From: an uncultured Thermoleophilaceae bacterium
Lineage (GTDB): Bacteria; Actinomycetota; Thermoleophilia; Solirubrobacterales; Thermoleophilaceae
DNA: 64,000 bases
Assembly: GCA_963839405.1 (NCBI GenBank)
Contig: CAWIUV010000003.1
Coordinates: forward strand, 237,445 to 301,444
Direction: 5' to 3'
Each line of letters opens with the position of its first letter. The first letter of the stretch is position 1. This document shows positions 6,331 through 24,036 of the stretch, piece after piece. The position numbers and the translations under genes are program-made. A model generated the notes under the pieces. That model ran no database searches and was not told the origin of the DNA. It was given only the letters and a program-made list of their open reading frames with translations.

Positions 6331-7356
6331 CTAGGCCAGCGCGCGCTCGCGTGCGCGCCGTCGTGCGCGTGAGGCCACGAGCCAGCCCACCAGCCCCAGC
6401 AGAGCGAGGGGTAGGAGGATCGCTCCGGCCCGGATGAGGAAGTTGAGAATGTCCTCCAGCGACCCGACGGCGTCGTCGACCGCCTCGTCCGTCTCACCTG
6501 TGACGGCACCCGCGTCCTCGTCCACGAGGTCCACGACGATGGTCGCGTACTCGGTGCGCTCGCGCACCCCGCGCAGCTGGTCGCGCAGCGCCGTGATGCG
6601 ATTGCCGACGATCGTGAGCCGCCGGCGGAGAGCCTGGGCGGCCGTGTCGGTCTCCGCCAGCTCGAGGCGGCGCAGGAGGCTCGTACGCAGCGCCCGAGCC
6701 GTGCGCAGGCGGTCGCGGATCGAGACGAACGATCCGGTCACGTCAGTGCCCGACTCGCTCCTCGCGCGCACGGTGGCGAGCCGTGACAGCTCGTTGAGCG
6801 CGGGCTGCAGCTGCGATGACGGCACACGCAGCTGGAAGAAGCCGGTGCTGAAGCCCTCCTCGCCCTGGGTGAAGGACGACTGGAGGACGAAGCCGTCGCG
6901 GCGGTCGGCCGTGCGGAAGATCGCGTCGGCGATGCTGTCGAACTCGTCCGGATCGGAGGCCAGGGTGAGCTGGGCGGAGCGCTCGATGCGCCGGACCTCC
7001 GCGCCTGGAGCGATGTCTTCGCCTCCGACGGGCGGCGGGATCGGCTGGGGCAGCGCGGTCCCGGGCTCGGCCGCACGGCTTGCGGTGTCGGCGCCCAGGC
7101 TCTCGGCCGCGGCCGGGGCGTCGGTCGCCGTAGGGGCGCTTGGCTCCTCGCCCGAATCCAGCACGGCGACGGCCACGAGTACGGCCAGGCCGGCGCTGGC
7201 CGCGAACGCCGCAATGGGTCGCGGGCGGAGGGCGGGGAGGCGACGCTTCCGCTCGTGCGGGAAGCCGCGCTTCATCCGCCACTCCATGTCGGCGACGAAG
7301 TCGGGGTCCGGCGTCGGCCGGATCTCCTCCAGGACGTCCTCAAGCGTCTTCATCAC
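6331..7356 (-). CDS. Membrane anti-sigma-factor-like protein with extracytoplasmic DUF4349-like domain
   Basis: Overlaps the ECF sigma gene by 17 nt. Has a TM segment (IAAFAASAGLAVLVAVAVL), a coiled region resembling DUF4349 (FFQLRVPSSQLQPALNELSRL..DVTGSFVSIRDRL) and a C-terminal TM. The anti-sigma role is inferred from position only. Confidence 0.6.
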   Translation of the reverse strand: MMKTLEDVLEEIRPTPDPDFVADMEWRMKRGFPHERKRRLPALRPRPIAAFAASAGLAVLVAVAVLDSGEEPSAPTATDAPAAAESLGADTASRAAEPGTALPQPIPPPVGGEDIAPGAEVRRIERSAQLTLASDPDEFDSIADAIFRTADRRDGFVLQSSFTQGEEGFSTGFFQLRVPSSQLQPALNELSRLATVRARSESGTDVTGSFVSIRDRLRTARALRTSLLRRLELAETDTAAQALRRRLTIVGNRITALRDQLRGVRERTEYATIVVDLVDEDAGAVTGETDEAVDDAVGSLEDILNFLIRAGAILLPLALLGLVGWLVASRARRRARERALA

Positions 7357-7888
7357 ATTCCCTCCTCAGCTTCTCGAGCGTTCGGTGCAGCCGAGTCCCG
7401 GCGTTCGACGCCGATATCCCGAGCACGCGGGCGATCTCCTCGTGCGAGAGCCCGCCGGCGAACTTGAGCGCGACGATCTCGCGCTCGCGCGGGGCGAGCC
7501 GGCCCAGCGCGGCGCGTACGGCCTCGCGGCGAAGCGCTCCGTCCGCCAGCTCGTCGGCGGCGGGCGCGTGGACGTCCTCCGGATCGGCTTCGAGAACCGC
7601 ACGGCGCTTCTGCCGGCGGAGCTCGTCGAGGGCCGCGTTGCGCGCGATCCCGAAGAGCCACGCCTCCTCGCTGCCGCGCGACGCCCTGAATGTGCGCCGC
7701 TTGCGGTACGCGCGCTCGAACGCCTGCGCCGTTACCTCCTCCGCGGCGGTGCGGTCGCGCAGCAGCGTCGCGACGTATCCGTACACGCGCGGGAAGGAGC
7801 GGCGGTACAGGGCCTCGAATGCCTCGGAAGGAGTGCTCGTGGCGCGCCGGAGCGGGCGGGCGATCCGTTCGGCGACTGCTTCGCTCAT
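7340..7888 (-). CDS. ECF-type RNA polymerase sigma-70 family factor
   Basis: Region 2 (FEALYRRSFPRVYGYVATLLRDRTAAEEVTAQAF..AWLFGIARNAALD) and region 4 (LAPREREIVALKFAGGLSHEEIARVLGISASNAGTRLHR). Confidence 0.9.
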   Translation of the reverse strand: MSEAVAERIARPLRRATSTPSEAFEALYRRSFPRVYGYVATLLRDRTAAEEVTAQAFERAYRKRRTFRASRGSEEAWLFGIARNAALDELRRQKRRAVLEADPEDVHAPAADELADGALRREAVRAALGRLAPREREIVALKFAGGLSHEEIARVLGISASNAGTRLHRTLEKLRRECDEDA

Positions 7889-8408
7889 GCCTCAACTACG
7901 CTCCAGGCGGCCTTTCATCACGGTGGTTTTTCTTCTTCTCGCACTTGTTCTCGCACTGACCCTGCCGGGCCCGGCAGCGGCCAACCACACCGGCGACCTC
8001 TGGGCGACCGTGAACATCTGCGACACCCAGGAGAACCCGAACGTCCTCGGCGTGCGCGCCAGCATGCCCGGCAACGGGACGAAGCAGACGATGTGGATGC
8101 GCTTCCGTGCGAGCTACTACGACAGGGGCACGGAGGAGTGGTACGACGTGGGCGGCGACAGCATCTCGCCGTGGATCAAGGTGGGCAACGCGAAGTACCG
8201 CAGCCGCGAGTCCGGGCGCAAGTTCCACATCGACCCGCCCGTGCCGACGACGAGCCACGTGGTGCGCGGCCTCGTCGACTTCCGCTGGCGCCGCGACGGG
8301 GAGACGGTCCGGCGTACCACGCGCAAGACGCTGGCCGGCCACCCGACCGGCACTCACGGAGACCCGGACAACTACTCGGCCGGGCTGTGTGAGATTGCGT
8401 TCCCGTAG
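7887..8408 (+). CDS. Secreted protein of unknown function
   Basis: Signal peptide MPQLRSRRPFITVVFLLLALVLALTLPGPAAA followed by a 140-aa domain with no motif I recognise. Only the C-terminal part of track ORF 7140..8408 is plausible coding sequence. Confidence 0.55.
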   Translation: MPQLRSRRPFITVVFLLLALVLALTLPGPAAANHTGDLWATVNICDTQENPNVLGVRASMPGNGTKQTMWMRFRASYYDRGTEEWYDVGGDSISPWIKVGNAKYRSRESGRKFHIDPPVPTTSHVVRGLVDFRWRRDGETVRRTTRKTLAGHPTGTHGDPDNYSAGLCEIAFP

Positions 8409-9109
8409 AGCCCGTCGAAGAGCCGCGGGTCGTTCGTGATGACCGCGTGCACGCCGATCGCCTCGAGGCGGGCGATCTTGTCGGCGTCGTCCACCGTCCA
8501 GACGTAGAGCTCGCCGCCCGCCGCGCGGACCTGCTGCGCCAGCCGTGGCGTGACCACGTAGTGGTGCGCCATCACCGCCTGGATCCGGCCGGCGCGGATG
8601 AAGCTGGCGGCGCGGGCGGGCAGCCGGCGCTTGATCACCTGTAGGACCCCGTACGCCGGGACCGCCCAGATGCTGCGCGTGTAGTCGCGCTGCGCGCGCG
8701 GCACCGACCAGCCACGCGGGATGTCCGGATCGAGCTCGCGCACCCGGTCGAGGCTCTCGAGGTACTGGCTCGAGATGAGCGACCTCGCCGACAGCCCTCG
8801 TGCGGCCAGGCCCTCGACCACCTCGCGCTCGTACCCCGGCAGCTTCAGATCGACGTCCAGCTCCACGCCCGCGTACGCCTCGCCCGCGAACAGGTCGAGT
8901 CCCTCGTCGAGCGTGAGCGGCGTCCGCTTCGCGGCGTCCTTGAAGTCGTGCGCGAGCACAAGCCGGCCGTCACGCAGCCGCAGGACGTCGAACTCGATCA
9001 TGTCGACGCCGTGCTCGAGCGCCGCCTCGAAGCTCGCGCGCGTGTTGCCGGGGGCCACGTGGTCGGCGCCCTTGTGGCCGACTCGCTTCAGCGCTGACAA
9101 CCGGGACAC
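8372..9109 (-). CDS. Glycerophosphodiester phosphodiesterase (GDPD family)
   Basis: [37 protein letters not shown] matches the GDPD catalytic N-terminus (HRG..ENT..E.D). GTG 9109 overlaps the nei stop. The track ORF 8372..9865 fuses it artefactually to nei. Confidence 0.8.
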
Positions 9110-9865
9110 CAGTAGGTCGTACGGTTGTCGTCGCCCTGGCCGCGAGCTCGTATGCGGGTCGTGCAGCGTGGACATGGCCGCCCTGAACAGTCGTACAACT
9201 GCAGCCCGCGGATGTGACCTCCTCGTGAAACCGACTCCTGCATACGCCGGCGCGTGCAGCGGACGATCCGCAGCGCTTCGTCGTCCGTGACATCGCCGAC
9301 CTTTCGCCACGGGTCGACGCACGCGTCGAAACAGCCCTCGCTCTTCCACACGTTGCCAATCCCCGCAATGTTGCGCTGGTCGAGCAGCGCGTCGCCAATG
9401 CCGCGGGTCGGGTCGTCCTCGCGCAGGCGCGTGAGGAAGCGACGCTCGTCGAGCTCCGGGCTGAGGATGTCCGGGCCGAGGGCGGCGAGGCGCGCGTCGA
9501 ATCGCGTGCGGCTCTCCGTCATCAGCTCGAGCACGGGCCCGTCGAACTGGACGACCTCGGCGGCGTCGGTCCGGAGGACGAGCCACGCGCGGTGGCGCCC
9601 GCGCGACCACCGCTTGCCGGAGCGGATAGACGCCCCACATGCCGCCCATCCGCAGGTGCGAGTGGAGCGTGAGGTCGCCCTCGAAGCGGAGGAACAGGTG
9701 CTTGCCGTGCGCATCCACCGAATGGACGGGCCGTCCGGCCAGGCGCTCGGGCCAGCGGTCCATCGCATGCCGTGGCTGCGGCGTCTCGACAGCGACGATC
9801 TCGTTGCCGACCAGGGCGGCGCCGACCCGCCGGGCCGCCGCGTGGATCGTGTCTCCCTCAGGCAC
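9088..9865 (-). pseudogene. nei: Endonuclease VIII / Fpg-family DNA glycosylase, one frameshift near 9635
   Basis: N-terminus MPEGDTIH (catalytic P2/E3), H2TH region IGDALLDQRNIAGIGNVWKSE and zinc finger CPRC..CPGCQR. The two halves lie in different frames and join at ..MGGMWGVY / RSGKRW.. (an extra C). Confidence 0.85.
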
Positions 9866-12800
9866 TGAGGGTCAGCTTCCGCGGCCCCTGACGGAAGCCG
9901 AGCTCGATGAGCAGTTCCTCGACCGGAGAGCCGACGATCGGCTCGCCGTCGAAGCGCTCCAGCGCGAGCCGCTTGAGCCGTCCGCGCCGGACGTGCTCGG
10001 CGAGTGCCTCGAGCGCGTCTCTGAGCCACGACTCGTCGGGCTCGCGGAGCGGGACGAGGCCCTTTCCTCCGCGCTCGACGTAGAGCACCGGCTCGGCGTC
10101 GAGCAGCACGACGTAGGCGCCCGCTACGCGCGCGGGGCGGCGGCGCTGGTCCTCGTCGCGCCGCGGCCATGGAAGCGAAGCGCCGTAGGGGTTCGCGGGA
10201 TCCGTTGCCGCCAGCACCAGCGCTCCGGCCGGCTCGTCCGAGCGCAGGCTGCGCAGCCGCTCGACCGCCCCGGCGAGGGCGAACTGCGCTCCCCAAGCCC
10301 CTCGACGAAGTAGCCGCGGCGGGCGGTCCCCAGCGTCTCCAGGTTCGTCAGCTCTCCGTACAGGGTCGCGAATCCACCGGGCACGCCCTCGGCGAGGACC
10401 GTCTCGCGCGTGACGATGCCGTAGCGCTCGAGCAGGAGCTCCGCCTGCGCGCGCATGCGCGGCCCGTACGCCGGTTGATCCGCGAACAACGACGCGGTGA
10501 GCGACCAGCGGCCCTGCACCTGAGGCGCGCCGGGACGACGGTGCTTCGCAAAGCGCCGCCCGCGCTTGTGCTGCTGGTCGCGGGCGACCGTCAGCCGCGG
10601 AGCGCGCAGCGGCGCCCAGGCATCGTTAGTCACCTCGCCCGCCCAGACGAGGTCCCAGAGCCCCTCCTGGAGCTCCGCCGTCTCGATCTCGCCGAGGTCC
10701 ACGAGCAGGTCCGACCAGAAAGCGGCGCCGGTGCCGAGCCGCTCGCGGATCGCGTCGTGCACAGGACCAGCGGGGGCGTCGCCGCGGTTCGTGGGCGGCC
10801 CCAGCCAGCGCACGTCATCGCGGAAGTAGAGCGCCACGCGGCCCGAGCTACGGCCCAGCGCGCCGGCGCCGATCCACACGACCTCGCCGCCGGAGCAGAG
10901 CTGGTCGAGCCAGGTGGGGGACCAGCTGCCGAGCCGGCGCGGGAGTACGTCACGCTCCCAAGTCTCGGGCGTCAGGGCGATGCCCTGGAGCGGGACGAGC
11001 ACCTCGCGCAGTCGGTCGATGCCTGCGCCGCCGGGCGGTGCCGCGTCCACGCCCTGCCAGGCGGGAAGGAAGCGGGCGAGCTGCTTCTGCTCGACGGCCT
11101 CGACCTCCTTGCGGAGCGTGGCGAGCGAAGCCCGCCGGAGGCGGCGCAGCACGTCGGGGTCGCACCACTCGCGCTCGCGGCCGCCTGGTCGCAGCTCGCC
11201 GCGCACGAGCGCGCCGGTGCGCTCGAGCTCACGCAGGACCGGCCCAGGATCGATGCTGTAGCGGGCCGCGAGGTTTCCGGTCGGGAACGGCCCGTGCGTG
11301 CGCGCGTACCGCCGAACGAGCCGCTGCAGCGGCTCCTCGACCGGCTCGAGGAAGGTCTCGGGCAGGCCGCCCGGCGGCACGGCCCCGAGGGCGTCGCGAT
11401 AGAGGCCCGCGTCCTCGGACGCGATGAAGCGCTCCTCGCCGCCGATCCGCATCGACACCGCGCGGCGCTCGGCGGCGAGCCCGTCAAGGATCCGCTTCGC
11501 CGACACGCCGCGGTGGCAGCGCGCCTGCACCTCGTCGAGGGTCAGGTCGCCGACCGCGCGCAGGATGTCGTGGGCGCCGTCGGCGTTCACCGGCCTGGGT
11601 GCGCTCGGAGAGGCGCTGGAGATCCGCCTCGACCTCCGCGAGCGCCTCGGCGTCGATCAGGTCGCGGAGCTCCTCCTGTCCGAGCAGTTCAGCGAGTAAC
11701 TCGCGGTCAAGTGAAAGAGCGGCGGCCCGCCGCTCAGCGTTCGGCGTGTCGCCCTCGTACATGTACGTGGCGACGTAGTCGAAGAGCAGCGAGGAGGCGA
11801 ACGGCGACGAGCGCGGCGTCTCGACCTCGACGAGCGACAGCTCGCGCGTGTGCAACCCGCGCAGCAGGTCCTTCAGCGCGGGCAGGTCGAACACGTCCTG
11901 GAGGCACTCGCGGTAGGTCTCGAGCACGATCGGGAACTGGCCGTAGCGCTTCGCGACCTCGAGCAGCGACTGGGCCTTCAGGCGCTGCTGCCACAGCGGC
12001 GTGCGCTTGCCGGGGTAGGCGCGCGGGAGCAGCAGCGCGCGGGCGGCGTTCTCGCGGAACCGGGAGCCGAAGAGCGCGGAGTTCCCGAGCTCGCGCACGA
12101 CCAGGTCCTCGACCTCGTCGGGGTCGACCATCACGAGCTCGGATCCGGGCGGCTCGTCCGCATCGGGGAGGTGCACGACGATCCCGTCGTCGGACCAGAT
12201 CGCGTCGGCCTCGAGCCCGAATTCGTCGCGGATGCGAGCAGCGAGTGCGAGGCCCCACGCCGCGTGCACCCGGCCGCCGTAGGGCGACAGCACGCACAGG
12301 CGCCAGTCGCCGATCTCGTCACGGAAGCGCTCGACCACGATCGTGCGGTCACTCGGCACGACGCGCGTGGCCTCCTGCTGCTCGCGCAGGTACATGACCA
12401 GGTTGCCTGCCGCGCGCTCGTCCAGCCCGTACTCGGCCGCAAGCGTCGCCGGCTCCTTGTCCACCGCGGTGCGGGAGAACTCGCCGAGCGCCTTGCCCAG
12501 CTCTGCCGGCCGGCCGACCATGTCGCCGCGCCAGAACGGGATCGCGCCCGGCGCGCCCGGGGCCGGCGTGACGAGCACGCGGTCGCGGGTGATCTCCTCG
12601 ATCCGCCAGGTGGACGCTCCGAGCATGAACGTCTGGCCCGCGCGCGCCTCGTAGACCATCTCCTCGTCCAGCTCGCCCACCCGGCGCCCGTCCGGGAGGT
12701 GGACGCCGAACAGCCCGCGGTCGGGGATCGTGCCCGCGTTCGTGATCGCCAGCTGGCGTGCGCCCTGGCGTGCCCGGATGACGTCCTCGACTCGGTCCCA

Positions 12801-14244
12801 GACGATCCGCGGCTTGAGCTCGGCGAACTCCTCGGACGGGTAGCGCCCGTCGAGCATGTCGAGGACGTTGTCCAGCAGCTTGCGGTCCAGCTCCGCGAAC
12901 GGGTACGCGCGCCTGACCAGGTCGTGCAGCTCGGGCACCTTCCACTCGTCGCCCGTTGCGACGCAGGCGACGATCTGCTGCGCGAGGACGTCGAGCGGGT
13001 TGCGCGGCACGACCGTCTCCTCGATCAGCGCCTCGCGCATCCGCTGAGCGACCACCGCCGACTCGAGCAGGTCGGAGCGGAACTTCGGGAAGATCCGGCC
13101 CTTCGACGTCTCGCCGACGCCGTGCCCGGCGCGGCCGATCCGCTGCAGGCCGCGCGTCACGGACTTGGGCGACTCGACCTGCAGCACGAGGTCGACGGCG
13201 CCCATGTCGATGCCGAGCTCGAGCGAGGAGGTCGCCACGAGGCACGGCAGCTCGCCGGACTTCAGCATCTCCTCGACGACCAGCCGCTCCTCGCGCGCGA
13301 GCGATCCGTGGTGGGCGCGCGCGATGTCGGCGGGCTTCCCGTCCTCGCCCGCCAGCTCGTTCAACCGCATCGCGAGCCGCTCCGCGCCGCGGCGGTTGTT
13401 CACGAAGACGATCGTCGACTTGTGCGACTGGACCAGTTCGAGCAGCTCGGGGTAGATCGCGGGCCAGATCGAACGGCGCGTGGCGCCGCCCGCCGGCGAG
13501 CGGGTCCAGGTCGTCCGTGCCCTCATCCGGCTCGCGCATGTCCTCGACCGGGACCTTGATCTCGAGGTCGAGCGGCTTCCGCAGGCCGGTGTCCACGACC
13601 TTGCACTCGCGCGTCGGGCCCACCAGGAAGCGGCCGACCTCGTCGAGCGGCCGCTGGGTCGCCGAGAGCCCGATGCGCTGCACCGGGTGCCCTGCCTCGT
13701 GCTCGAGGCGCTCGAGCGTCAGCGCAAGGTGTGCGCCGCGCTTGGACTGCGCTACGGCATGGATCTCGTCCACGATCACCCACTCCGCGTCGCGCAGGAA
13801 CTCGCGCGCGCGCGAAGTCAGCATCAGGTAGAGCGACTCAGGCGTCGTGATAAGGATGTCCGGCGGCTTGCGAAGCATCGCCGCGCGCTCCTTCTGCGGC
13901 GTGTCGCCGGTGCGGATCGCCACCGAGATGTCGCCGCCAATGCCCTTGAGCGGTGCGCGCAGGTTGCGCTCGATGTCGTAGGAGAGCGCCTTCAGCGGGG
14001 ATACGTAGACGAGCCGCGTCTTCCGCTCGTCCGCAGGCAGGGGCTCTGCGACCAGCCGGTCGAGGCCCCACAGGAAGGCCGCGAGCGTCTTGCCCGAGCC
14101 GGTCGGCGCGGACAGGAGGACGTGTTCGCCGCCTGCGATGGCCGGCCATGCCTGCTCCTGCGCCCGAGTGGGCTCTGCGAAGGCGCGCTTGAACCAGTCG
14201 CGAACCTGAGGAGTGAAGTTGGCCAGTGGGTCAGCTGAAGGCAC
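9858..14244 (-). pseudogene. lhr: Lhr-type large ATP-dependent DEAH helicase (~1460 aa), three frame switches
   Basis: Motifs LLSAPTGSGKTLAAF, VIVDEIHAV, LSAT and HHGSLAREER..VATSSLELGIDMG, plus the long Lhr C-terminal extension ending ..LAATDPANPYGASLPWP. Pieces are ORFs 12349..14571, 11484..13526, 10124..11590 and 9858..10217, with junctions near 13490, 11590 and 10290. GTG 14244 follows AAGGG. Confidence 0.9.
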
Positions 14245-14252
14245 GGAACCCT

Positions 14253-14918
14253 TCAGCGTATCGCCAGCTCGGACGCGCGTACAAACACGGCGTCCGTCAT
14301 CTCCTCGGTCAGCCTGCCGGTGAACGTGTTCTGCTGCGACGGGTGGTACGAGCCGAGCAGGTGGCGCCCGCTCGGCAGCTCGAATTCCGCCATGTGACCG
14401 AACTTCGGGCGCGGCGGCGGGGGCGGGTCGAGCTTGAGCGCGGCGTCCCAGGCGAACCCGCCCAGGCAGACGATCACGCGCACGGATGGCATCAACTCGA
14501 GCTCTCCGGCCGCGTACGGCAGGCAGTTGTCGCGCTCGCTCGGCAGCGGCCGGTTGGCCGGCGGCGCACACCGGACGGCCGCCGCCACGAATGCGCCGTG
14601 CAGCTCGAGCCCGTCGCCGGCATGGAGCGAGGTCGGCTGGTTCGCGAAGCCGGTGCGGTGGAGCGAGGCGAACAGCCAGTCGCCTGAGCGGTCGCCCGTG
14701 AAAACGCGCCCGGTGCGGTTCCCGCCGTGGGCTGCCGGTGCGAGTCCGAGCACGTAGACGCTCGCCTCGGGGTCGCCAAAGCCCGGCACGGGCCGGCCCC
14801 AGTACTCCTCGCCGGCGTAGGCGGCGCGCTTCTCGCGTGCGACTCGCTCACGCCACTCCACGAGGCGCGGGCACCTGCGGCAGGCGATGACCTGTCGCTC
14901 GAGCTCGTCGAGGTTCAA
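14253..14918 (-). CDS. udgB: Uracil-DNA glycosylase, family 5-like (Fe-S type)
   Basis: CRRCPRL, motif A GLAPAAHGGNRTGRVFTGD (GLAPA rather than GEAPG) and motif B GSYHPSQQN. TTG start 14918 overlaps the preceding stop (TTGA). Confidence 0.8.
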   Translation of the reverse strand: MNLDELERQVIACRRCPRLVEWRERVAREKRAAYAGEEYWGRPVPGFGDPEASVYVLGLAPAAHGGNRTGRVFTGDRSGDWLFASLHRTGFANQPTSLHAGDGLELHGAFVAAAVRCAPPANRPLPSERDNCLPYAAGELELMPSVRVIVCLGGFAWDAALKLDPPPPPRPKFGHMAEFELPSGRHLLGSYHPSQQNTFTGRLTEEMTDAVFVRASELAIR

Positions 14919-15415
14919 AGGTTCGCGCGCACCAGCCGCACGAACACGTCGACCACCTCCGGGTCGAAGTGCTTGCCGGCTGCGTGCTCGAGCTCCTCGA
15001 GCGCCACCTCCGCCGGGATCGGCGGCCTGTAGGCGCGCGGTGACGTCATGCCCACGTAGGCGTCGAGGACCGCGATGATGCGGGCGCCCATCGGGATCTC
15101 CTCGCCCTCGAGATGGTCCGGGTAGCCGGTGCCGTCGAGCCGCTCGTGGTGGTGGCGCACCCACTGGCCCACGTCCTCCCCGTGGCCCTCTTCGCGCGCG
15201 TACGCCTCGCCGAGCTCGGGGTGCTTGCGCATCGCCTCCCATTCGGCCTTGGTCAGGGGCCCGGGCTTCTCGACGATCCGCTCGGAGATCATCTGCTTGC
15301 CCACGTCGTGCAGCGAGCCGGCCAGCTCGAGCATCTCGAGCGTCTCCGCGTCGAGCTCGAGGATCTCGCCGACGCGCCGCGCGTACTGCCCGACGCGGTT
15401 CTCCTCCTCGCTCAC
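14915..15415 (-). CDS. Stand-alone HD-GYP domain phosphohydrolase (166 aa)
   Basis: LHDVGK, HPELG and HHHERLDGTGYPDHL motifs. GTG start overlaps the permease stop (GTGA). There is no receiver or sensor domain. Confidence 0.8.
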   Translation of the reverse strand: MSEEENRVGQYARRVGEILELDAETLEMLELAGSLHDVGKQMISERIVEKPGPLTKAEWEAMRKHPELGEAYAREEGHGEDVGQWVRHHHERLDGTGYPDHLEGEEIPMGARIIAVLDAYVGMTSPRAYRPPIPAEVALEELEHAAGKHFDPEVVDVFVRLVRANL

Positions 15416-16191
15416 GCCTTGAGCCTCCTGCCGCTCGTGAAGAGATACTGCGAGAAGAGGTACGCCGGGATGGCGACGGCTGCGGTCACCCCCAGGGAGA
15501 GCACCACGCTCACGTCGCTCTCGCCCAGCATCCCGAACCGCATCGCCTGGACCAGGTAGAAGAGCGGGTTGAAGTGGGACAGCTCCTCCCACGGCGAGCC
15601 GAGCATGTCCACGGAGTAGAAGACGCCGCCGACGAAGGCGAGCGGGAGGATCACGATGTTCGAGATGAACGTGGTGTGGTCCCACTGCTCCGCGTAGATG
15701 CCGACGATCGTCCCAAGGGCGCCGAACCCGATCAAGGCGAGCAGCGCGGCCAGCAGGAGGACGTGCGGCTGCTCGACGGGCACGCCGGTGAGCGGGATCG
15801 CGAGCGCCAGCAGCCCGGCTCCGATCGCGAGCCCGCGCGCGACGCCGCCGAGGTTCCACCCGAGGTTCAGCTGCCACGGGTGCATCGGGGCCGCGAGGAC
15901 GTCGTTCACGTAGCGGTCGGAGCGCGCCTGGTAGATCGACGAAGCGTTGTTGTTGTAGGCCTGCTGCACGATCGTCATGGCGATCAGGCCGGGCACGATG
16001 AACACCTCGTAGTCGAAACCCTCCACCTGCTTTATCCGCCCGCCGAGCGACAGGCCGAAGACCACGATGAAGAGCGTGGAGGACACAACGGGGGCCAGAA
16101 CGGTCTGGGTCCACAGCTTCGAGACCCGCAGCGTCTCGCGCCTGGCCAACCATATGAGGCCTCCGTACCCATTCTCGACGCGTTCGTGCAC
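15412..16191 (-). CDS. ABC-2 type transporter permease
   Basis: 259-aa ORF with six predicted TM helices and ABC-2 features (ETLRVSKLWTQTVLAPVVSSTLF..; FNPLFYLVQAMR). GTG start, with TACTCT 7 nt upstream. Confidence 0.8.
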   Translation of the reverse strand: MHERVENGYGGLIWLARRETLRVSKLWTQTVLAPVVSSTLFIVVFGLSLGGRIKQVEGFDYEVFIVPGLIAMTIVQQAYNNNASSIYQARSDRYVNDVLAAPMHPWQLNLGWNLGGVARGLAIGAGLLALAIPLTGVPVEQPHVLLLAALLALIGFGALGTIVGIYAEQWDHTTFISNIVILPLAFVGGVFYSVDMLGSPWEELSHFNPLFYLVQAMRFGMLGESDVSVVLSLGVTAAVAIPAYLFSQYLFTSGRRLKA

Positions 16192-16233
16192 CCAGCCGAG
16201 AGTAACGGTGGGCCCTAACCTGCCCCTGCGCGG

Positions 16234-17821
16234 ATGCCTCGCTCACTCCTGACAATGCTCGCCCTCGCGGCAATCTCCGGCGCGCCTGCGCATGCCGCCA
16301 TGTCCGAGCCGCCGATGACGCTCCCCGGCGACGCCCGCGCCGCCGGCGTGCTCGCCGACCGTGACACGTGGATCGTCGCCGCCCACGACACCCGTGCGGC
16401 AGCCTCGCTCGCGCGCCGCTACGGCGCGAAGCCAGTGGGGTCGGTCGGCGCTCACGTCGTGGCCCGCCGCCACGCGCGCGCCTTCGCCACGGCCCTGCGC
16501 CGCCGCGGGCTGCTCAAGTTCGCCGAGCCCAACATCCTCAGCCGCCCGCGGGCCTCGGGCGGCGACCCGTTCACCAGCAGCACGAGGTGGCGCCCGGCGG
16601 TGGTCGAAGAGGGGCTCGAGCCGCCCGCCGTCACGGCCTCAAGCCCGAAGCTCGCGCTGATCGACTCCAAGCTCGACGAGAGCCATCCGGAGTTCGCCGG
16701 CGGCCGCATCAACTCGGTCGGCTCAGGAGCGGTCCGCGACGAGCACGGCACGGCGACGGCGGCGGTCGCGGCCGCGCCAACCAACGGGCAGGGGATCGAG
16801 GGGATCTGGCCGGGCATGATCACCACCAACTTCCCCACCACCCTCTCGTGTGGCGACATCGTGCGCCGCATCAAGGCGGTCGTCCGGGGCGGATACGACG
16901 TGCTCAACATGAGCTACGGCTCGAGCCAGGAATGCTTCTCGGAATCCGCCGAGCTGCAGCGCGCCACCGGCGCCGGCGTTCTGCTGGTGGCCGCCGCCGG
17001 CAACGAGTTCGCCGAGGGCAACCCGCTCGAGTACCCGGCGTCGCTCCCGCACGTGGTCACGGTTGCCGCGGTCGACTTCGCGGGCGAGACCAGCTACTTC
17101 TCGAACGCGAACGCGGCGGTTGACGTCGCCGCGCCCGGCGAGCGGATCGGCACCGCGGTCCCGATGACGCACGACCCCGACGGGGACGGCAACGGCTACG
17201 CGTTTGTAGACGGCACCAGCTTCGCCGCGCCTATGGTCGCGGCGGTGGCCACGTGGGTCACGGCCGTGCGGCGCAACCTGACCGTTGACCAGGTGGCCCA
17301 GGTGGTGAAGCTCTCGGCGATCGACCTGGACCGCGAGGGATGGGACCCGAACACCGGCTACGGGCTCGTTCAGGTGGGGAACGCGCTGCGCGTACGCGCC
17401 GCCGGCGAACGACCCGCTCGAGCCGAACGAGAACATCTTCTGGGTCAACGGCGAGATCTTCCGCAACCCCGATCCGATCGTTTACGACGGGAAGCCGCGC
17501 CGGCGCAGGTTCAAGGCGCGCCTCGACCAGTTCGAGGATCCGTCCGACGTCTACCGCGTCCGCTTCCCCGCCAGGTCGCGCACGCGCATCGCCGTCGTGC
17601 CGAGCTTCGGCGATCCGGATCTGGCGGTGTTCCACGGCAACGCCGACAGCACCTCCGACCCGCCGCTCGGGTTGTCTCAGCGAGTCGGCAGCGCGCGGGA
17701 CTTCCTTGTGATCCGAAACGGCAGCCGGCGGGCCGCGCGCGCCTTCGTCGAGGTCTACATCGATCCGTCGGCGCGCGGGCTGGACGCGGGCTACTCGCTC
17801 CGGTTCAAGCGGGCTCGCTGA
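16234..17821 (+). pseudogene. Secreted subtilisin-like serine protease (S8) with C-terminal PPC-like domain, one frameshift near 17395
   Basis: Signal peptide. Catalytic triad blocks LIDSKLD, HGTATAAV and GTSFAAPMVAA. The C-terminal domain (NDPLEPNENIFWVNGE..VYRVRFPARSRTRIAVVPSFGDPDLAVF..YSLRFKRAR) continues in the frame of ORF 17597..17821. Confidence 0.85.
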
Positions 17822-18546
17822 CGCCCACGCTCATCGCCTTCACGTAGACGTCCTCCAGCGAGGTCGCGCCGTAGTGCGCGCGCAGGCCGGCCGCCGTGTC
17901 GCGCGCGATCAGGCGGCCGTGCTGGATCAGGGCGATCTCCTCGCACAGCGCCTCCGCCTCGTCGAGGTAGTGCGTCGTCAGGAGGATCGTGGTGCCCTCC
18001 GCGTGCAGCCGGCGGATGTAGCTCCACAGCTCGGTGCGCAGCTCGAAGTCGACGCCAGCCGTCGGCTCGTCGAGGATCACCAGCCGCGGGCGGTGCATCA
18101 GCGCGCGCGCGAGGAGCACCCTGCGCCGCATGCCGCCCGACAACTTCGAGGTCCGCGTGTGCGCCTTCGCGCGAAGGTCGAACACGTCGATCATCTCGTC
18201 GGCGCGCCGGTTCGCCTCCGCTCCGCCCATCCCGAAGTAGCCGCCGTGGTAGACGAGCGTCTCCTGCACGGTGAGGAAGCGGTCGAGGTTGATGTCCTGC
18301 TCCGCGAGCCCGACGTCTCGCCGCGCCGCGCAGCGTGTGGGCCGGGCGCCCGAACACGAGCGCTTCGCCGCTCGTGATCCGGATCAGGTTGCAGACGGCG
18401 TTGATCGCGGTGGTCTTCCCGGCGCCGTTGGGCCCGAGCAGCCCGAAGAACGCGCCGTCTGGAATGGCCAGGTCGAAGTTCTCGAGCGCGAGCGTGCCGT
18501 CGTCGTAGCGCTTGGTCAGGCCGCGGAGCTCGAGGGCGGGAGTCAC
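17805..18546 (-). pseudogene. ABC transporter ATP-binding protein, one frameshift near 18318
   Basis: Walker A GLLGPNGAGKTT in ORF 17791..18546. Signature LSGGMRRRV, Walker B LVILDEPTAGVD and the H-loop lie in ORF 17805..18269. Confidence 0.85.
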
Positions 18547-18558
18547 GCTTCCAGCCTA

Positions 18559-18587
18559 GGGGTCTGACCCCACCGGGGTCAGACCCC
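18559..18587 (-). terminator. Perfect 13-bp-stem hairpin right after the rmlB stop
   Basis: GGGGTCTGACCCC-acc-GGGGTCAGACCCC with no U-tract. It ends 12 nt upstream of the ABC ATPase start codon. Confidence 0.5.
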
Positions 18588-18589
18588 CT

Positions 18590-19588
18590 TTAGGAAAGGC
18601 TGCGGCCGTACTGGCGCTCGTAGTACTCGCGGTACTCGCCCGAGCGGATCGGCTCCCACCACCACTCGTTGTCGCGGTACCACTCGACCGTGCGCGCGAG
18701 GCCCTCGTCGAAGGAGACCTGAGCCTCCCAGCCGAGCGCGGCGACCTTCTCGGACGAGAGCGAGTAGCGGCGGTCGTGCCCCTTCCGGTCCTCGACGTGC
18801 TCGATCAGCGACCGGTCGCGCCCGGTCAGCTCGAGGATGCGCTCGACGACCGCGAGGTTCTCCTCCTCGTCCGGGCCGCCGACGTTGTACACGTCACCCG
18901 GCTTGCCCTCCCGCAGCACGAGGTCGATCGCGCGCGCGAAGTCCTCCATGTAGAGCCAGTTGCGCACCTGGCGCCCGTCCCCGTACACGGGCAGCGGGTC
19001 CTCGTGCAGGGCGTTCAGCGTGCAGAGCGGAATCAGCTTCTCCGGGTACTGGCGCGGGCCGTAGTTGTTCGAGCCGCGGCAGATCACGGCCTCGATGCCG
19101 TGCGTGTGGACGTGCGCCTGCACGAGCAGGTCGCCGGCCGCCTTGGTGGCCGAGTACGGCGAGGAGGGCTCGAGCGGGGACTCCTCGGTGAACGATCCGC
19201 GCTCGATCGAGCCGTACACCTCGTCGGTCGAGACCTGGAGGAAGCGCGCGACTCCGAGCTCGCGCACGGCGTCGAGCAAGACGCCCGTGCCGATCACGTG
19301 CGTCACCGCGAACGGGTCCTGACCCGCGATGGAGCGGTCCACGTGCGACTCGGCTGCGAAGTTCACGACGAGCTCGCAGCCCTGCATCGCATCGCGGACC
19401 ACGGCCGGGTCCTCGATTGCGCCCTCGATGAACTCGATCCGGTCCTCGACCTCGGCGAGGTTCTCGCGCCGGCCCGCGTAGGTGAGCTTGTCGAGCACGA
19501 CCACCTGGTCATCGGGGCGGGCGTCCAGGAGCACGCGGACGTATGCCGAGCCGATGAACCCGGCCGCGCCCGTCACAAGGGTCCTCAT
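18590..19588 (-). CDS. rmlB: dTDP-glucose 4,6-dehydratase
   Basis: MRTLVTGAAGFIGS.., STDEVYG and YSATKAAGDLL (YxxxK). Start ATG 19588 overlaps the rmlD stop. The longer track ORF is an upstream extension. Confidence 0.92.
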   Translation of the reverse strand: MRTLVTGAAGFIGSAYVRVLLDARPDDQVVVLDKLTYAGRRENLAEVEDRIEFIEGAIEDPAVVRDAMQGCELVVNFAAESHVDRSIAGQDPFAVTHVIGTGVLLDAVRELGVARFLQVSTDEVYGSIERGSFTEESPLEPSSPYSATKAAGDLLVQAHVHTHGIEAVICRGSNNYGPRQYPEKLIPLCTLNALHEDPLPVYGDGRQVRNWLYMEDFARAIDLVLREGKPGDVYNVGGPDEEENLAVVERILELTGRDRSLIEHVEDRKGHDRRYSLSSEKVAALGWEAQVSFDEGLARTVEWYRDNEWWWEPIRSGEYREYYERQYGRSLS

Positions 19589-21974: not shown

Positions 21975-24036
21975 TCAGCTGTGCGCGAGCCCGGCGAGCG
22001 CTTCCGCGCCCTCGAGGACCGCGGCGCGGGCCTCCTCGGGCTCGAGCACCACCGCATCGCCGCTCAGGCTGAGGATCAGGTGCACGAGCCAGTCGGTGCC
22101 CTTGAAGGGCTGCTCCACGATCACGGCCCCGTCCTTCAGCTCCTGCACGACCCGCTTGTCCTCGCGCGCCCAGCGCGCCCGCTCGGGCGACCACCAGATC
22201 CGTGCGACCTGCGAGGCCTCGACCTCGCCGGTCTTCAGCCAGCCGCGCGTGTCGGCCTCGACGCCCTCGCGCGGCTCGAACTCCTCGTCGAGCACGCTGG
22301 CGGAGCGGATGCGGTCGAGCCGGAACGTGCGCGTATCGTCGCGCTCGAGGTCGAACGAGACGACGTACCAGCCCTCACGGCCGTTGGCGAGCTGGTACGG
22401 CTCGATCCGGCGAGTCGAGAAGTCGTCCTCGTTCTCCTTGTAGTACTCGAGCTCCACCAGGCGGTGCGACACGATGCCCTCGCTGAGCACCCGCGCGACA
22501 TCGGAGTCGTCGCCCTTCGCGCGCGTGATCTGGAGGCCGTCCTGGGCGGGGTCCTGCCCGAGCGCCTTGGTGATCTTCTTGCGCGCGGACTCCAGCGAGC
22601 CCTCCGGGATGTGCTCGCCGATCAGGTCGATGGCGGCCACCAGCGCCTTCGCCTGCAGCGGGAGGAGGCGTGCCGGGCGGGCGAAGTTGTCGCCGTAGGG
22701 CTCGGGGTCCACCTCGATCGTGTCGCCGACGACCTCGGCGTACACGACGTAGCTGCCGCCCGCCGAAGTTGACGACGTTGAGCACGTCGATGTCCTCCTG
22801 CAGCTCCTGCTCGGTCACGTTCAGCCGCTCGCAGAGCGGAGCGAGGTCGAGCTTGATGCCCTCGCGCGCAGCCTCGATCAGGATGCTGGCGAGCGTGACG
22901 AGGCGGGCGAACCGCTCAGGGCGGATCGGTGACTCGCCCTTGCCCTCATCGTCATCCGGCGCCGGCCGCTCGGTCTGGCGTGCCTTCGGCTTCGCCGCCT
23001 CGAAGGCGCCGCGATGCCGCTCGACGATCAGCTCCAGCCGCTCGCCGGCGAGCTTGACCAGGTCGGGTGGGTCGAGCAGGCGCGCACGGTCGCCCAGCTC
23101 GAGCACCCAGTCGACGATCGCGCGCGGGTCCGCGTACTCGGTTTCGAAGACCGAGCCGTCCGACGGCGCGTCCTCGACGTCCGCGGCCGGCTGAATCGAG
23201 CCGGCGTGCCCGTAGTGGCGCTCGATCAGCCAGTCGACGCGCGGGGACAGCCAGATCCGGGCGGTGCCCTCCGCGTCACCGAGCTGCCAGTCCGTCCGGG
23301 TGGCGTACCAGCGGTGATCGAAGTCCTCCGGGCGGGCGAAGTCATGCTCGGCCTTCGACGAGTACGACACCTTGCCGCGGATGCGCGAGAGCCGGAATAC
23401 CCGGATGTCCTGGCGCTCGTGCGAGTAGCCGATCAAATAGAACTGCCCGCGCTGGTAGAGGAGCTGGTACGGGTCGACCTTGCGCTTCTCCTCCGCGTCG
23501 CGGCCGATCGTGTAGTAGTCGAAGACGATCGTCTTGCGCCGGAAGATCGCGGTCTCGATCTTCGACAGCCGCTGCGACAGCTCACGCCCGCCGGCCTCCG
23601 CCGTCTGCGCGAGCGCCACCGCCTGGCTGTCGGCGGTTCCCAGGGGCGAGGGCTTGCCCCAGGAGAGCTGCTGGAGCGCGAGCCGGAGCGGCTCGGCGTA
23701 GGCGAACTCGCCGTCCAGCAGGCTGAGCGCCATCCGCAGCGCGCCCAGCTCGGCGTCCGAGAACCTGATCGCCGGCAGGTAGAAGTTCTCCGGCGGGAGC
23801 GTGTAGCTCTCCGCCTCGTACGAGCCGTCGGCGGGCTTGTCCACCTTCAGGTCGATGCCGAGCGACTCGAGCTCCGCGCGGTCGGCGTAGAAGCGGCGCG
23901 CGAAGGCGTCGTCGTTCATGCCCGAGTAGCCCTCCACCTCCTGCTTGATCTCGAGCGCGGTGACCGAGCGCCGCTCCGCCATGAGGAACGAGATCAGGGA
24001 GAGCTGCCGTATGAGCTTTTCGGTGTCTTTTGCCAC
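21975..24036 (-). pseudogene. pafBC: Fused PafB-PafC-type regulator (two HTH-WYL-WCX modules in one polypeptide), one frameshift near 22745
   Basis: Module 1: VAKDTEKLIRQLSLISFLM.. and KVDPYQLLYQRGQFYLIGYSHERQDIRVFRLSRI. Linker ..PAPDDDEGKGES... Module 2: RPERFARLVTLASILIEA.. and RIEPYQLANGREGWYVVSFDLERDDTRTFRLDRI. There is no stop or frame change at the module junction. An extra G in GGCGGGCGG breaks the frame inside module 2. Start is GTG 24036. Confidence 0.8.

Follow-up and report, generated by a model that had tools for sequence, protein, structure and literature searches.

A putative composite of two gene modules around lhr and nei in a Thermoleophilaceae genome, with a family-5 uracil-DNA glycosylase and a divergent GDPD-type phosphodiesterase as recurrent neighbours

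We analysed a string of six genes on the minus strand of a 64,000-nucleotide stretch of DNA (the window) from G000, a Thermoleophilaceae metagenome-assembled genome (MAG) of 2.6 Mb in 14 contigs with a marker completeness of 56.6%. The G+C content of the window (72%) makes long spurious open reading frames (ORFs) plentiful, and the real genes were placed via a plot of third-position G+C and profile searches against Pfam and NCBIfam. The searches confirmed the order and domain families given in an earlier note on this DNA: an ABC-2 permease, an HD-GYP protein, a uracil-DNA glycosylase (UDG), the helicase gene lhr, nei and a GDPD gene. The note was also right in assigning the UDG to family 5, because the protein matched the Thermus thermophilus enzyme 2D3Y over its full length with an E-value of 3e-66, compared with 2e-5 or weaker for family-4 structures. 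The six genes are listed here in the direction of reading:

15412..16191, minus strand: ABC-2 exporter permease, YadH/DrrB/NodJ-like, 259 aa (PF01061, 99 bits)
14915..15415, minus strand: stand-alone, N-terminally truncated HD-GYP domain protein, 166 aa, GTG start (PF13487 HD_5, 112 bits)
14253..14918, minus strand: family-5 UDG (UDGb), 221 aa, TTG start (PDB 2D3Y)
9858..14244, minus strand: lhr, long form (Lhr-Core plus winged-helix C-terminal domain), ~1461 codons, GTG start at 14244 (Pfam/NCBIfam matches split over four frames)
9088..9865, minus strand: nei, Nei2-like Fpg/Nei glycosylase and apurinic/apyrimidinic (AP) lyase, ~258 codons, GTG start (Fapy_DNA_glyco, H2TH and zinc finger, in two frames)
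8372..9100, minus strand: GDPD-family phosphodiesterase of an HKG/PGNT subfamily, 242 aa from TTG 9100 or 245 aa from GTG 9109 (PF03009, 88.8 bits)

The junctions between these genes are tight. The permease stop and the HD-GYP start share the letters GTGA (15415-15412), the HD-GYP stop and the UDG start share TTGA (14918-14915), and an 8-nt gap separates the UDG stop codon (14255-14253) from the lhr GTG at 14244, all of which had been read correctly before. The 6-nt gap formerly placed between lhr and nei does not exist, however, as the nei GTG (9865-9863) lies ahead of the lhr TGA (9860-9858) in an overlap of 8 nt (GTGCCTGA, 9865-9858). The overlap claimed between nei and the GDPD gene is real and amounts to the 22 nt first proposed if translation begins at GTG 9109, but a start at TTG 9100, with an overlap of 13 nt, appears more likely because the homologous codon is ATG in 7 GDPD orthologues and locus L035 has a stop just before it. 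GTG 9109 arises from two codons of the Nei zinc finger, those of an invariant Trp and Cys (tGG TGt), read in another frame. The apparent conservation of a 'VS/PxxPALK' stretch is due to the nei coding sequence underneath. Compact, high-GC actinobacterial genomes typically join the genes of an operon by overlapping stop and start codons. Thus, the junctions alone say little, and their weight comes from the recurrence of the same junctions in other genera.

For the comparison of neighbourhoods, we used 12 loci of relatives around lhr, 80 loci from named genomes, 40 loci sampled across Actinomycetota and 80 metagenome loci around HD-GYP homologues; the synteny survey of lhr neighbourhoods covered ~145 loci. 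The named relatives are soil MAGs of Thermoleophilaceae and Solirubrobacterales, many of them from the long-read 'MFD' series, and two of the same genus, G003 and G004, served as references for frames and junctions. The gene lhr was counted in 72 of 151 phylum genomes, a tally that takes in the unpublished genomes G031, G048, G077, G117, G148 and G173; the locus set contains no locus from these six. Of 39 loci in the phylum sample, 27 have a co-directional nei 3' of lhr, which is directly adjacent in 16, and the lhr-nei adjacency is therefore widespread across Actinomycetota. The same sample had no family-5 UDG beside lhr (0 of 37 loci), no GDPD gene (0 of 39) and no permease (0 of 37-39).

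The UDG and the GDPD-like gene were joined to lhr only in Solirubrobacterales in the synteny survey. Within the family Thermoleophilaceae, the former lies upstream and the latter downstream of lhr in all nine loci, three from the same genus and six from other genera. In the remaining Thermoleophilia loci with enough flanking sequence, the frequencies were 14 of 62 for the UDG and 21 of 67 for the GDPD gene. One locus with the UDG gene, lhr, nei and the GDPD gene, L035, comes from the cultured relative Solirubrobacter phytolaccae KCTC 29190. The earlier proposal of a unit larger than lhr-nei is thus partly borne out by these recurrent partners, but not as a uniform six-gene unit, given the -10-like element found directly before lhr in most loci (described below). 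Among the additions, UDGb and the GDPD-like protein are the only broadly conserved partners of lhr.

The two genes at the 5' end have a narrower distribution. An ABC-2 ATPase-permease pair precedes the UDG gene only in Thermoleophilaceae, with the permease present in 5 of the 6 loci from other genera; a single genome, G026, carries such a pair on the downstream side of lhr. Orthologues of the HD-GYP protein with at least 88% identity occurred only within the genus, and the other matches in 30 relatives were paralogues of at most 50% identity, of which each relative genome holds 8-15. A sister tier with 62-64% identity to the window protein is found in the metagenome contigs L153 and L154, which belong to another genus because their lhr is only ~81-87% identical to that of the window. 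The order permease, HD-GYP, UDG recurs in 4 genomes of the same genus and, as far as each contig reaches, in all 14 metagenome contigs that carry this HD-GYP subfamily, so the association is not unique to this genome. Among the 40 loci sampled from elsewhere in the phylum, neither gene was seen beside lhr, except for one unrelated HD-GYP, and we read both as recent, narrow accretions. The exception comes from G076, a distant actinobacterium with 60% G+C, in which a canonical stand-alone HD-GYP of 195 aa (L137:13287-13874) precedes a co-directional lhr by 51 nt, and lhr has no nei behind it. The L137 pair is a second, independent adjacency of HD-GYP and lhr.

A gene for an S8/mycosin-like secreted protease (16234-17847, plus strand) is inserted between the permease and its ATPase (17791-18546, minus strand), whose own frame is broken. 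The insertion is confined to the genus, where the permease carries a TACTCT -10-like hexamer of its own; ATPase and permease are contiguous in L034, L075, L154, L165, G015, G008 and G017, and the HD-GYP subfamily is present without the S8 gene in L154, in L165 and, as far as the contig reaches, in L153. From these distributions we infer an order of accretion that would start from lhr-nei, continue with the GDPD gene and the UDG, then the ABC-2 pair and the HD-GYP gene, and end with the S8 insertion.

To locate possible -10 elements, the 46 nt around start codons (-40 to +6) were scanned for TANNNT in all Thermoleophilia loci, against a background of 2% of random 46-nt windows. The hexamer was present near the start of lhr in 86 of 94 loci and of the permease gene in 12 of 18, where it lies 6-7 nt before the start (11 TACTCT and 1 TACCCT); the permeases without it directly follow the ATPase. 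It was also found near the start of the ATPase (9 of 17) and of nei (23 of 48, with a distance of 6-7 nt to the start in at least 14), and was scarce at the UDG (3 of 37) and GDPD (3 of 32) genes and absent at the HD-GYP gene (0 of 18). Anchored alignments placed the lhr hexamers (such as TACGCT, TACCCT, TAGCCT and TAAGAT) 6-10 nt before the start whatever the upstream gene. L019 and L034, for example, retain the arrangement gATACGCT-N10-start with genes for a GMC oxidoreductase and a peptidoglycan-binding protein upstream of it. Two candidate promoters were marked in the window:

16199..16204, minus strand: candidate promoter of leaderless type for a first module, -10-like hexamer TACTCT 7 nt before the permease GTG (sequence and conservation)
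14255..14274, minus strand: candidate lhr promoter, GTC at 14274-14272, 11 nt, then TACGCT at 14260-14255 (TANNNT conservation)

The TACGCT hexamer of the second reaches into the UDG stop codon and leaves 10 nt to the lhr GTG. Conservation of a -10-like element at this position points to an internal promoter for lhr, nei and the GDPD gene, and would divide the string into two butt-joined modules, permease-HD-GYP-UDG and lhr-nei-GDPD. The mycobacterial PafBC promoter has the consensus tGTCgg-N10-tANNNT, the 3' part of which is the -10 element (PMC8635444). The strict motif TGTCRG-N9-15-TANNNT had no match in the window; the GTC-N11-TACGCT of this genus only approximates the consensus, and the 11-nt spacing also occurs in L120, a clear PafBC-type locus. 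Outside Thermoleophilia, 11 of 18 anchored Actinomycetota loci have a PafBC-type GTC-N11/12-TANNNT at a distance of 6-7 nt from the start of lhr (L115, L117, L120, L125, L126, L130, L134-L137 and L139). The -26 element (GTC) is rare before lhr in Thermoleophilia, even though the window encodes a fused PafBC-like gene (21975-24036). Consensus scans for sigma-70 promoters and terminators returned nothing above chance inside the string, an Rfam scan found one tRNA distant from it and no riboswitch, and a repeat search of positions 8000-18800 gave nothing beyond low-identity, GC-rich chance matches.

The tight packing could also mean that all six genes form a single coupled operon behind one upstream promoter, an integrated repair and nucleotide-signalling unit in which the HD-GYP protein and the exporter are partners of UDG, Lhr and Nei. 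The string has no gap longer than 8 nt and no terminator-like site above chance, and at least two lineages of the family share the permease-HD-GYP-UDG-lhr order, tight junctions included. The unrelated HD-GYP upstream of lhr in L137 and the ABC-2 pair on the other side of lhr in G026 would fit such a unit as well. We nonetheless hold it to be improbable, since the -10 before lhr is conserved independently of the upstream gene and the HD-GYP gene is missing from this position in all other families, with paralogues numerous enough in each genome that a chance adjacency is not rare. Furthermore, the opposite-strand S8 gene cuts the permease off from its ATPase, and relatives carry genes unrelated to repair inside the cluster, for proteins of the MMPL and MFS families, a GMC oxidoreductase, a peptidoglycan-binding protein and a PD40 protein. 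These insertions indicate a loose neighbourhood rather than a fixed operon.

The most novel element of the locus is the GDPD subfamily linked to lhr. The protein scored 88.8 bits against PF03009, well over the cut-off of 23.6, and no NCBIfam model attained its own cut-off. Its AlphaFold model (pLDDT 94) predicts the TIM barrel of GDPDs, and its top PDB matches are all GDPDs with TM scores of 0.7-0.76. Both catalytic histidines and the Glu/Asp metal ligands are kept, and the motifs HKG, GNT, ExD, HD and DxK are invariant in 24 orthologues. The canonical HRG and PENT were not found, their places being taken by HKG and PGNT in all 24; by sequence, the GDPD-like protein is thus a distinct subfamily. 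The predicted fold, the pair of catalytic histidines and the Glu/Asp ligands are shared with the GDPD of T. tengcongensis (2PZ0) and GlpQ of B. subtilis (5T9B), to which the model compares with TM scores of 0.73-0.76. It differs from both in having HKG for HRG, PGNT for PENT and DxK for ExK, and in a genomic context of DNA repair rather than glycerol-phosphate or phosphate uptake.

The position of the GDPD gene has persisted through the loss of nei. In contig C15 of G004 (L014:12236-12275), nei has been cleanly deleted, its first 11 nt (GTGCCTGAGGG) being joined to about its last 28 nt, and the GDPD gene now follows lhr after 12 nt; contig C8 of the same bin retains nei. Similarly, G017 has no Nei2 orthologue and its GDPD-like gene still adjoins lhr. 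This persistence suggests a link of the GDPD-like gene to lhr rather than to nei. The orthologue is single-copy and lies beside lhr in every assessable Thermoleophilaceae genome.

Such conservation could, on the other hand, be a case of frozen synteny, in which the UDG, the GDPD-like protein, the permease and the HD-GYP protein share no function with the helicase and are held together by a conserved region, tight packing and a small genome. Consistent with this, an unrelated ECF sigma gene nearby is also conserved, the insertions are heterogeneous, neither the UDG nor the GDPD gene is near lhr outside one order, and the genomes of families f2, f4 and f5 carry the GDPD orthologue at another place. 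Yet many genera keep the GDPD start within the coding sequence of nei or immediately after lhr, the gene follows lhr even after nei has gone, and the protein has an invariant signature of its own. Moreover, the family-5 UDG, Nei2 and Lhr have plausibly consecutive activities, Lhr of E. coli having been reported as a UDG (PMC10953399). We regard frozen synteny as a doubtful explanation, though one that keeps appreciable weight.

The remaining proteins carry the hallmarks of their families. The DEAD, Helicase_C, WH_Lhr and DEAD_assoc (domain 4) matches of Lhr were all found, over two frames in the window and contiguously in the G003 orthologue, and its C-terminal domain of ~600 aa matches WH2_Lhr, WH3_Lhr and WH4_Lhr (PF23236, PF23235 and PF23234). 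The pieces of Lhr in the window span positions 14-1536 of the 1538-position model PRK09751; the intact G003 protein scored 1384.5 bits against this E. coli-type model, below the equivalog cut-off of 1496. Nei retains Pro2-Glu3 (in an MPEGDT start), the H2TH domain (45.7 bits) and a zinc finger (CPRC...CPGC), and its best NCBIfam model is Nei2 (NF040775), against which the intact G003 orthologue scored 158 bits, below the cut-off of 400. The UDG has the motif GLAPxAHG (read as GLAPAAHGGNRTGR in the window), which lacks the family-4 catalytic acid, and keeps the Fe-S cysteines. In these traits and in its full-length homology, it resembles TTUDGB of T. thermophilus (2D3Y) and the mycobacterial UdgB, whose genes are not described as linked to lhr, whereas here the UDG gene adjoins it.

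The HD-GYP protein resembles phosphodiesterases of the HD_5 family in keeping the HD, H, HHExxDGxGYP and distal D motifs, which are invariant in its subfamily. Unlike canonical HD-GYPs, the subfamily is domain-only (166-180 aa), with no receiver or sensor domain, and is without the N-terminal helix and without the His of HxxRV, a position taken by Glu in the window and by Pro in the subfamily. In canonical HD-GYPs, the N-terminal helix also bears a Glu metal ligand. The permease fell just short of the NF011648 cut-off (223.3 bits against 225), and its orthologues scored 234-235 bits. The exporter appears to be of the DrrAB/YadGH/NodIJ type, with its two genes adjacent in other genera.

Some features flank the string. 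A 652-aa ORF downstream (6434-8392, plus strand) is probably an antisense shadow of ECF sigma and anti-sigma genes on the minus strand. Its matches at order level are confined to the stretch opposite the sigma gene, and we therefore no longer count it as a conserved gene downstream of the string. At positions 18559-18587 lies a palindromic element (GGGGTCTGACCCC / GGGGTCAGACCCC) with 17 and 14 copies in the 2.6-Mb genome, compared with ~0.5 expected. The copy in the window sits in a 42-nt insertion missing from G003. An element of this kind also lies between the UDG gene and lhr in L041, and another Solirubrobacterales MAG has a similar one.

Neither lhr nor nei forms a continuous ORF in the window, a state overlooked in the earlier note. 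The lhr gene is spread over four frames: the DEAD domain falls in frame 0, the Helicase_C, WH_Lhr and DEAD_assoc domains in frame 2, the WH2/3/4_Lhr modules in frame 1 and the last 119 codons in frame 2 again. It is interrupted by three 1-nt indels in this assembly. The nei gene occupies two, with the Fapy_DNA_glyco N-terminus (MPEGDT...GVYP) in frame 1 and the H2TH domain and zinc finger (SGKRW...CPGCQR, then the stop codon) in frame 0. Alignment to G003 located single-base indels at ~13488 (+1), 11593 (+1), 10292 (-1) and 9621 (+1), and tblastn searches with the G003 and G004 proteins gave the same break points:

13488..13490, minus strand: lhr frame break 1, one surplus base relative to G003 and G004 (alignment and tblastn)
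11590..11593, minus strand: lhr frame break 2, one surplus base (alignment and tblastn)
10292..10301, minus strand: lhr frame break 3, one base short (alignment and tblastn)
9618..9623, minus strand: nei frame break, one surplus base between ...GVYP and SGKRW... (sequence, alignment and tblastn)

We concluded that the three breaks in lhr and the one in nei are best read as indel errors of the assembly, not as biology, on the combined evidence of genome quality and of related sequences. Sister genomes of similar size have marker completeness values of 83-90%, as opposed to the 56.6% of G000, and comparison with G003 and G004 shows at least 9 frame breaks scattered across the whole window. Essential genes of the same assembly are affected as well: rpoB extends over 3 frames, rpoC has ~3 frame changes and secA extends over 2 frames, with gyrA intact. 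Both G003 and G004, by contrast, encode Lhr in a single open frame of 1461-1473 aa, the G003 protein having 1461 aa. Short-read contigs of related soil populations, furthermore, restore the frame of lhr, with one base fewer at 11590 or 11592 and an added G behind 10292, the latter in contigs from all four short-read runs compared.

The alternative that lhr and nei are genuine pseudogenes, in a strain that is losing its crosslink-repair operon, appears very improbable. Four breaks in 5.2 kb do somewhat exceed the window average, and nei is dispensable in sister lineages, as seen from its deletion in contig C15 of G004 and its absence from G017. But the essential genes rpoB, rpoC and secA are broken at a similar density (6 in ~12.6 kb), the lesions in lhr and nei are all 1-nt indels at short G/C runs, and the intact state is found in the related short-read contigs. 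The segments of lhr in the window are also free of internal stops and retain 93-96% protein identity to G003 and 90-95% to G004 (~95-96% to both in the helicase segment), despite a DNA identity of 83% across the region. Programmed frameshifting was rejected, considering the four differing contexts, the occurrence of both +1 and -1 shifts, the in-frame orthologues and the breaks in essential genes.

Further breaks relative to G003 and/or G004 lie at ~5376, 17390, 18331, 21736, 22760, 25270, 27100, 27965, 36470, 59285, 60170 and 61912. The genes broken include the S8 protease and ABC ATPase genes and possibly that of the fused PafBC protein (~22760, only relative to G004). A 1-nt deletion in the UDG gene at 14788 and a 2-nt deletion in the GDPD gene at 8804, both seen relative to G003, were assigned to errors or changes of G003, as the window frames agree with G004 and distant orthologues. 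Any ORF-level reading of the window should allow for 1-nt indels. The N-terminal frame of nei, for example, stays open into the GDPD gene and yields a spurious 497-aa ORF (8372-9865), a false 'Nei-GDPD' fusion. More generally, few contigs combined with low marker completeness flag long-read MAGs in which broken frames look like pseudogenes and give rise to false fusion ORFs.

Taken together, we consider it probable that the locus is an accreted composite around the actinobacterial lhr-nei2 operon, in which two transcription modules are joined without a terminator and the frame breaks are errors of assembly. Gene content, junctions, frame breaks, the distribution of neighbours and conservation of the -10 element were observed directly; promoter activity, read-through and biochemical roles are proposed as follows. 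The old core, lhr-nei2-GDPD-like, would be transcribed from its own -10 element into an mRNA with almost no leader, and nei and the GDPD gene would each be translationally coupled to the preceding gene through the overlaps. The younger module would start from the TACTCT located 7 nt before the permease, with HD-GYP and UDG coupled via their 4-nt overlaps, and probably reads through into the core, as only 8 nt and no terminator separate the UDG gene from lhr. By analogy with characterized relatives, UDGb would remove deaminated bases, Lhr would translocate 3'-5' on single-stranded DNA, Nei2 would cut abasic sites and the divergent GDPD-type enzyme would act on some phosphodiester substrate. The exporter half of DrrAB/YadGH type and the domain-only HD-GYP protein would be lineage-specific additions.

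Several observations weigh against this composite. The TACGCT-lhr spacing of 10 nt in this lineage is longer than the 6-7 nt typical of leaderless genes. A conserved neighbourhood is no proof of shared function, and several families also retain the ECF sigma gene that lies downstream of the GDPD gene. The breaks are denser in lhr-nei than elsewhere, as 4 of the ~9-13 detected in the window fall within ~12% of the aligned sequence (roughly p = 0.02-0.06), and a real lesion at one of the four sites is possible. The references, too, carry frameshifts of their own, in the UDG and GDPD genes of G003 and in gyrA of both G003 and G004.

The closest known system is the mycobacterial lhr-nei2 operon. 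DNA damage induces it by way of PafBC, and resistance to inter-strand crosslinkers depends on it (PMC9841417, PMC11323726). As in M. smegmatis, a long Lhr (Lhr-Core plus winged-helix C-terminal domain) is followed here by a Nei2-like enzyme on the same strand, and lhr would be the first gene behind its own, here candidate, promoter. Unlike the M. smegmatis operon, the locus has a GDPD gene coupled at its 3' end and a family-5 UDG, a permease and an HD-GYP protein butted at its 5' end, and the -26 element of the mycobacterial PafBC promoter is only approximated (GTC-N11-TACGCT). According to a phylogenomic study, a metallophosphoesterase (MPE) gene lies next to genes for the short Lhr-Core in other bacteria, and the long bLhr-HTH form has no apparent conserved neighbour (PMC8301817). 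The Lhr-Core/MPE repair cluster of Pseudomonas putida and other bacteria, cited in that study, combines a short Lhr-Core with a calcineurin-like MPE nuclease. It has in common with our locus an Lhr-family helicase habitually paired with a phosphoesterase gene, metal-dependent in that case. Our locus differs in its long Lhr and in the TIM-barrel enzyme of the GDPD family, a family without known action on DNA. That E. coli Lhr is itself reported as a UDG (PMC10953399) makes the adjacent UDGb less surprising. Our literature search found no description of a UDGb or a GDPD enzyme as a partner of Lhr, nor of a link between GDPD and Nei.

A more specific idea is that the HKG/PGNT protein is a dedicated partner of Lhr in Solirubrobacterales that acts on nucleic-acid ends, for example by the chemically plausible removal of the 3' sugar-phosphate remnant after Nei2 AP lyase; we offer it as a speculation that is more apt to be wrong than right by a wide measure. 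If true, UDGb, Nei2 and the GDPD-like enzyme would make a self-contained module of glycosylase, lyase and end-cleaning activities travelling with the helicase, and the GDPD-like/Lhr pair would parallel the Lhr-Core/MPE pairing of other bacteria. Descriptions of lhr-nei2 so far present a mycobacterial system of two genes that repairs inter-strand crosslinks. The neighbourhoods compared here extend the lhr-nei adjacency widely in Actinomycetota, beyond mycobacteria, and reveal one order in which a family-5 UDG and a divergent phosphodiesterase of GDPD type have become stable additions, both of them concrete candidate partners for Lhr.

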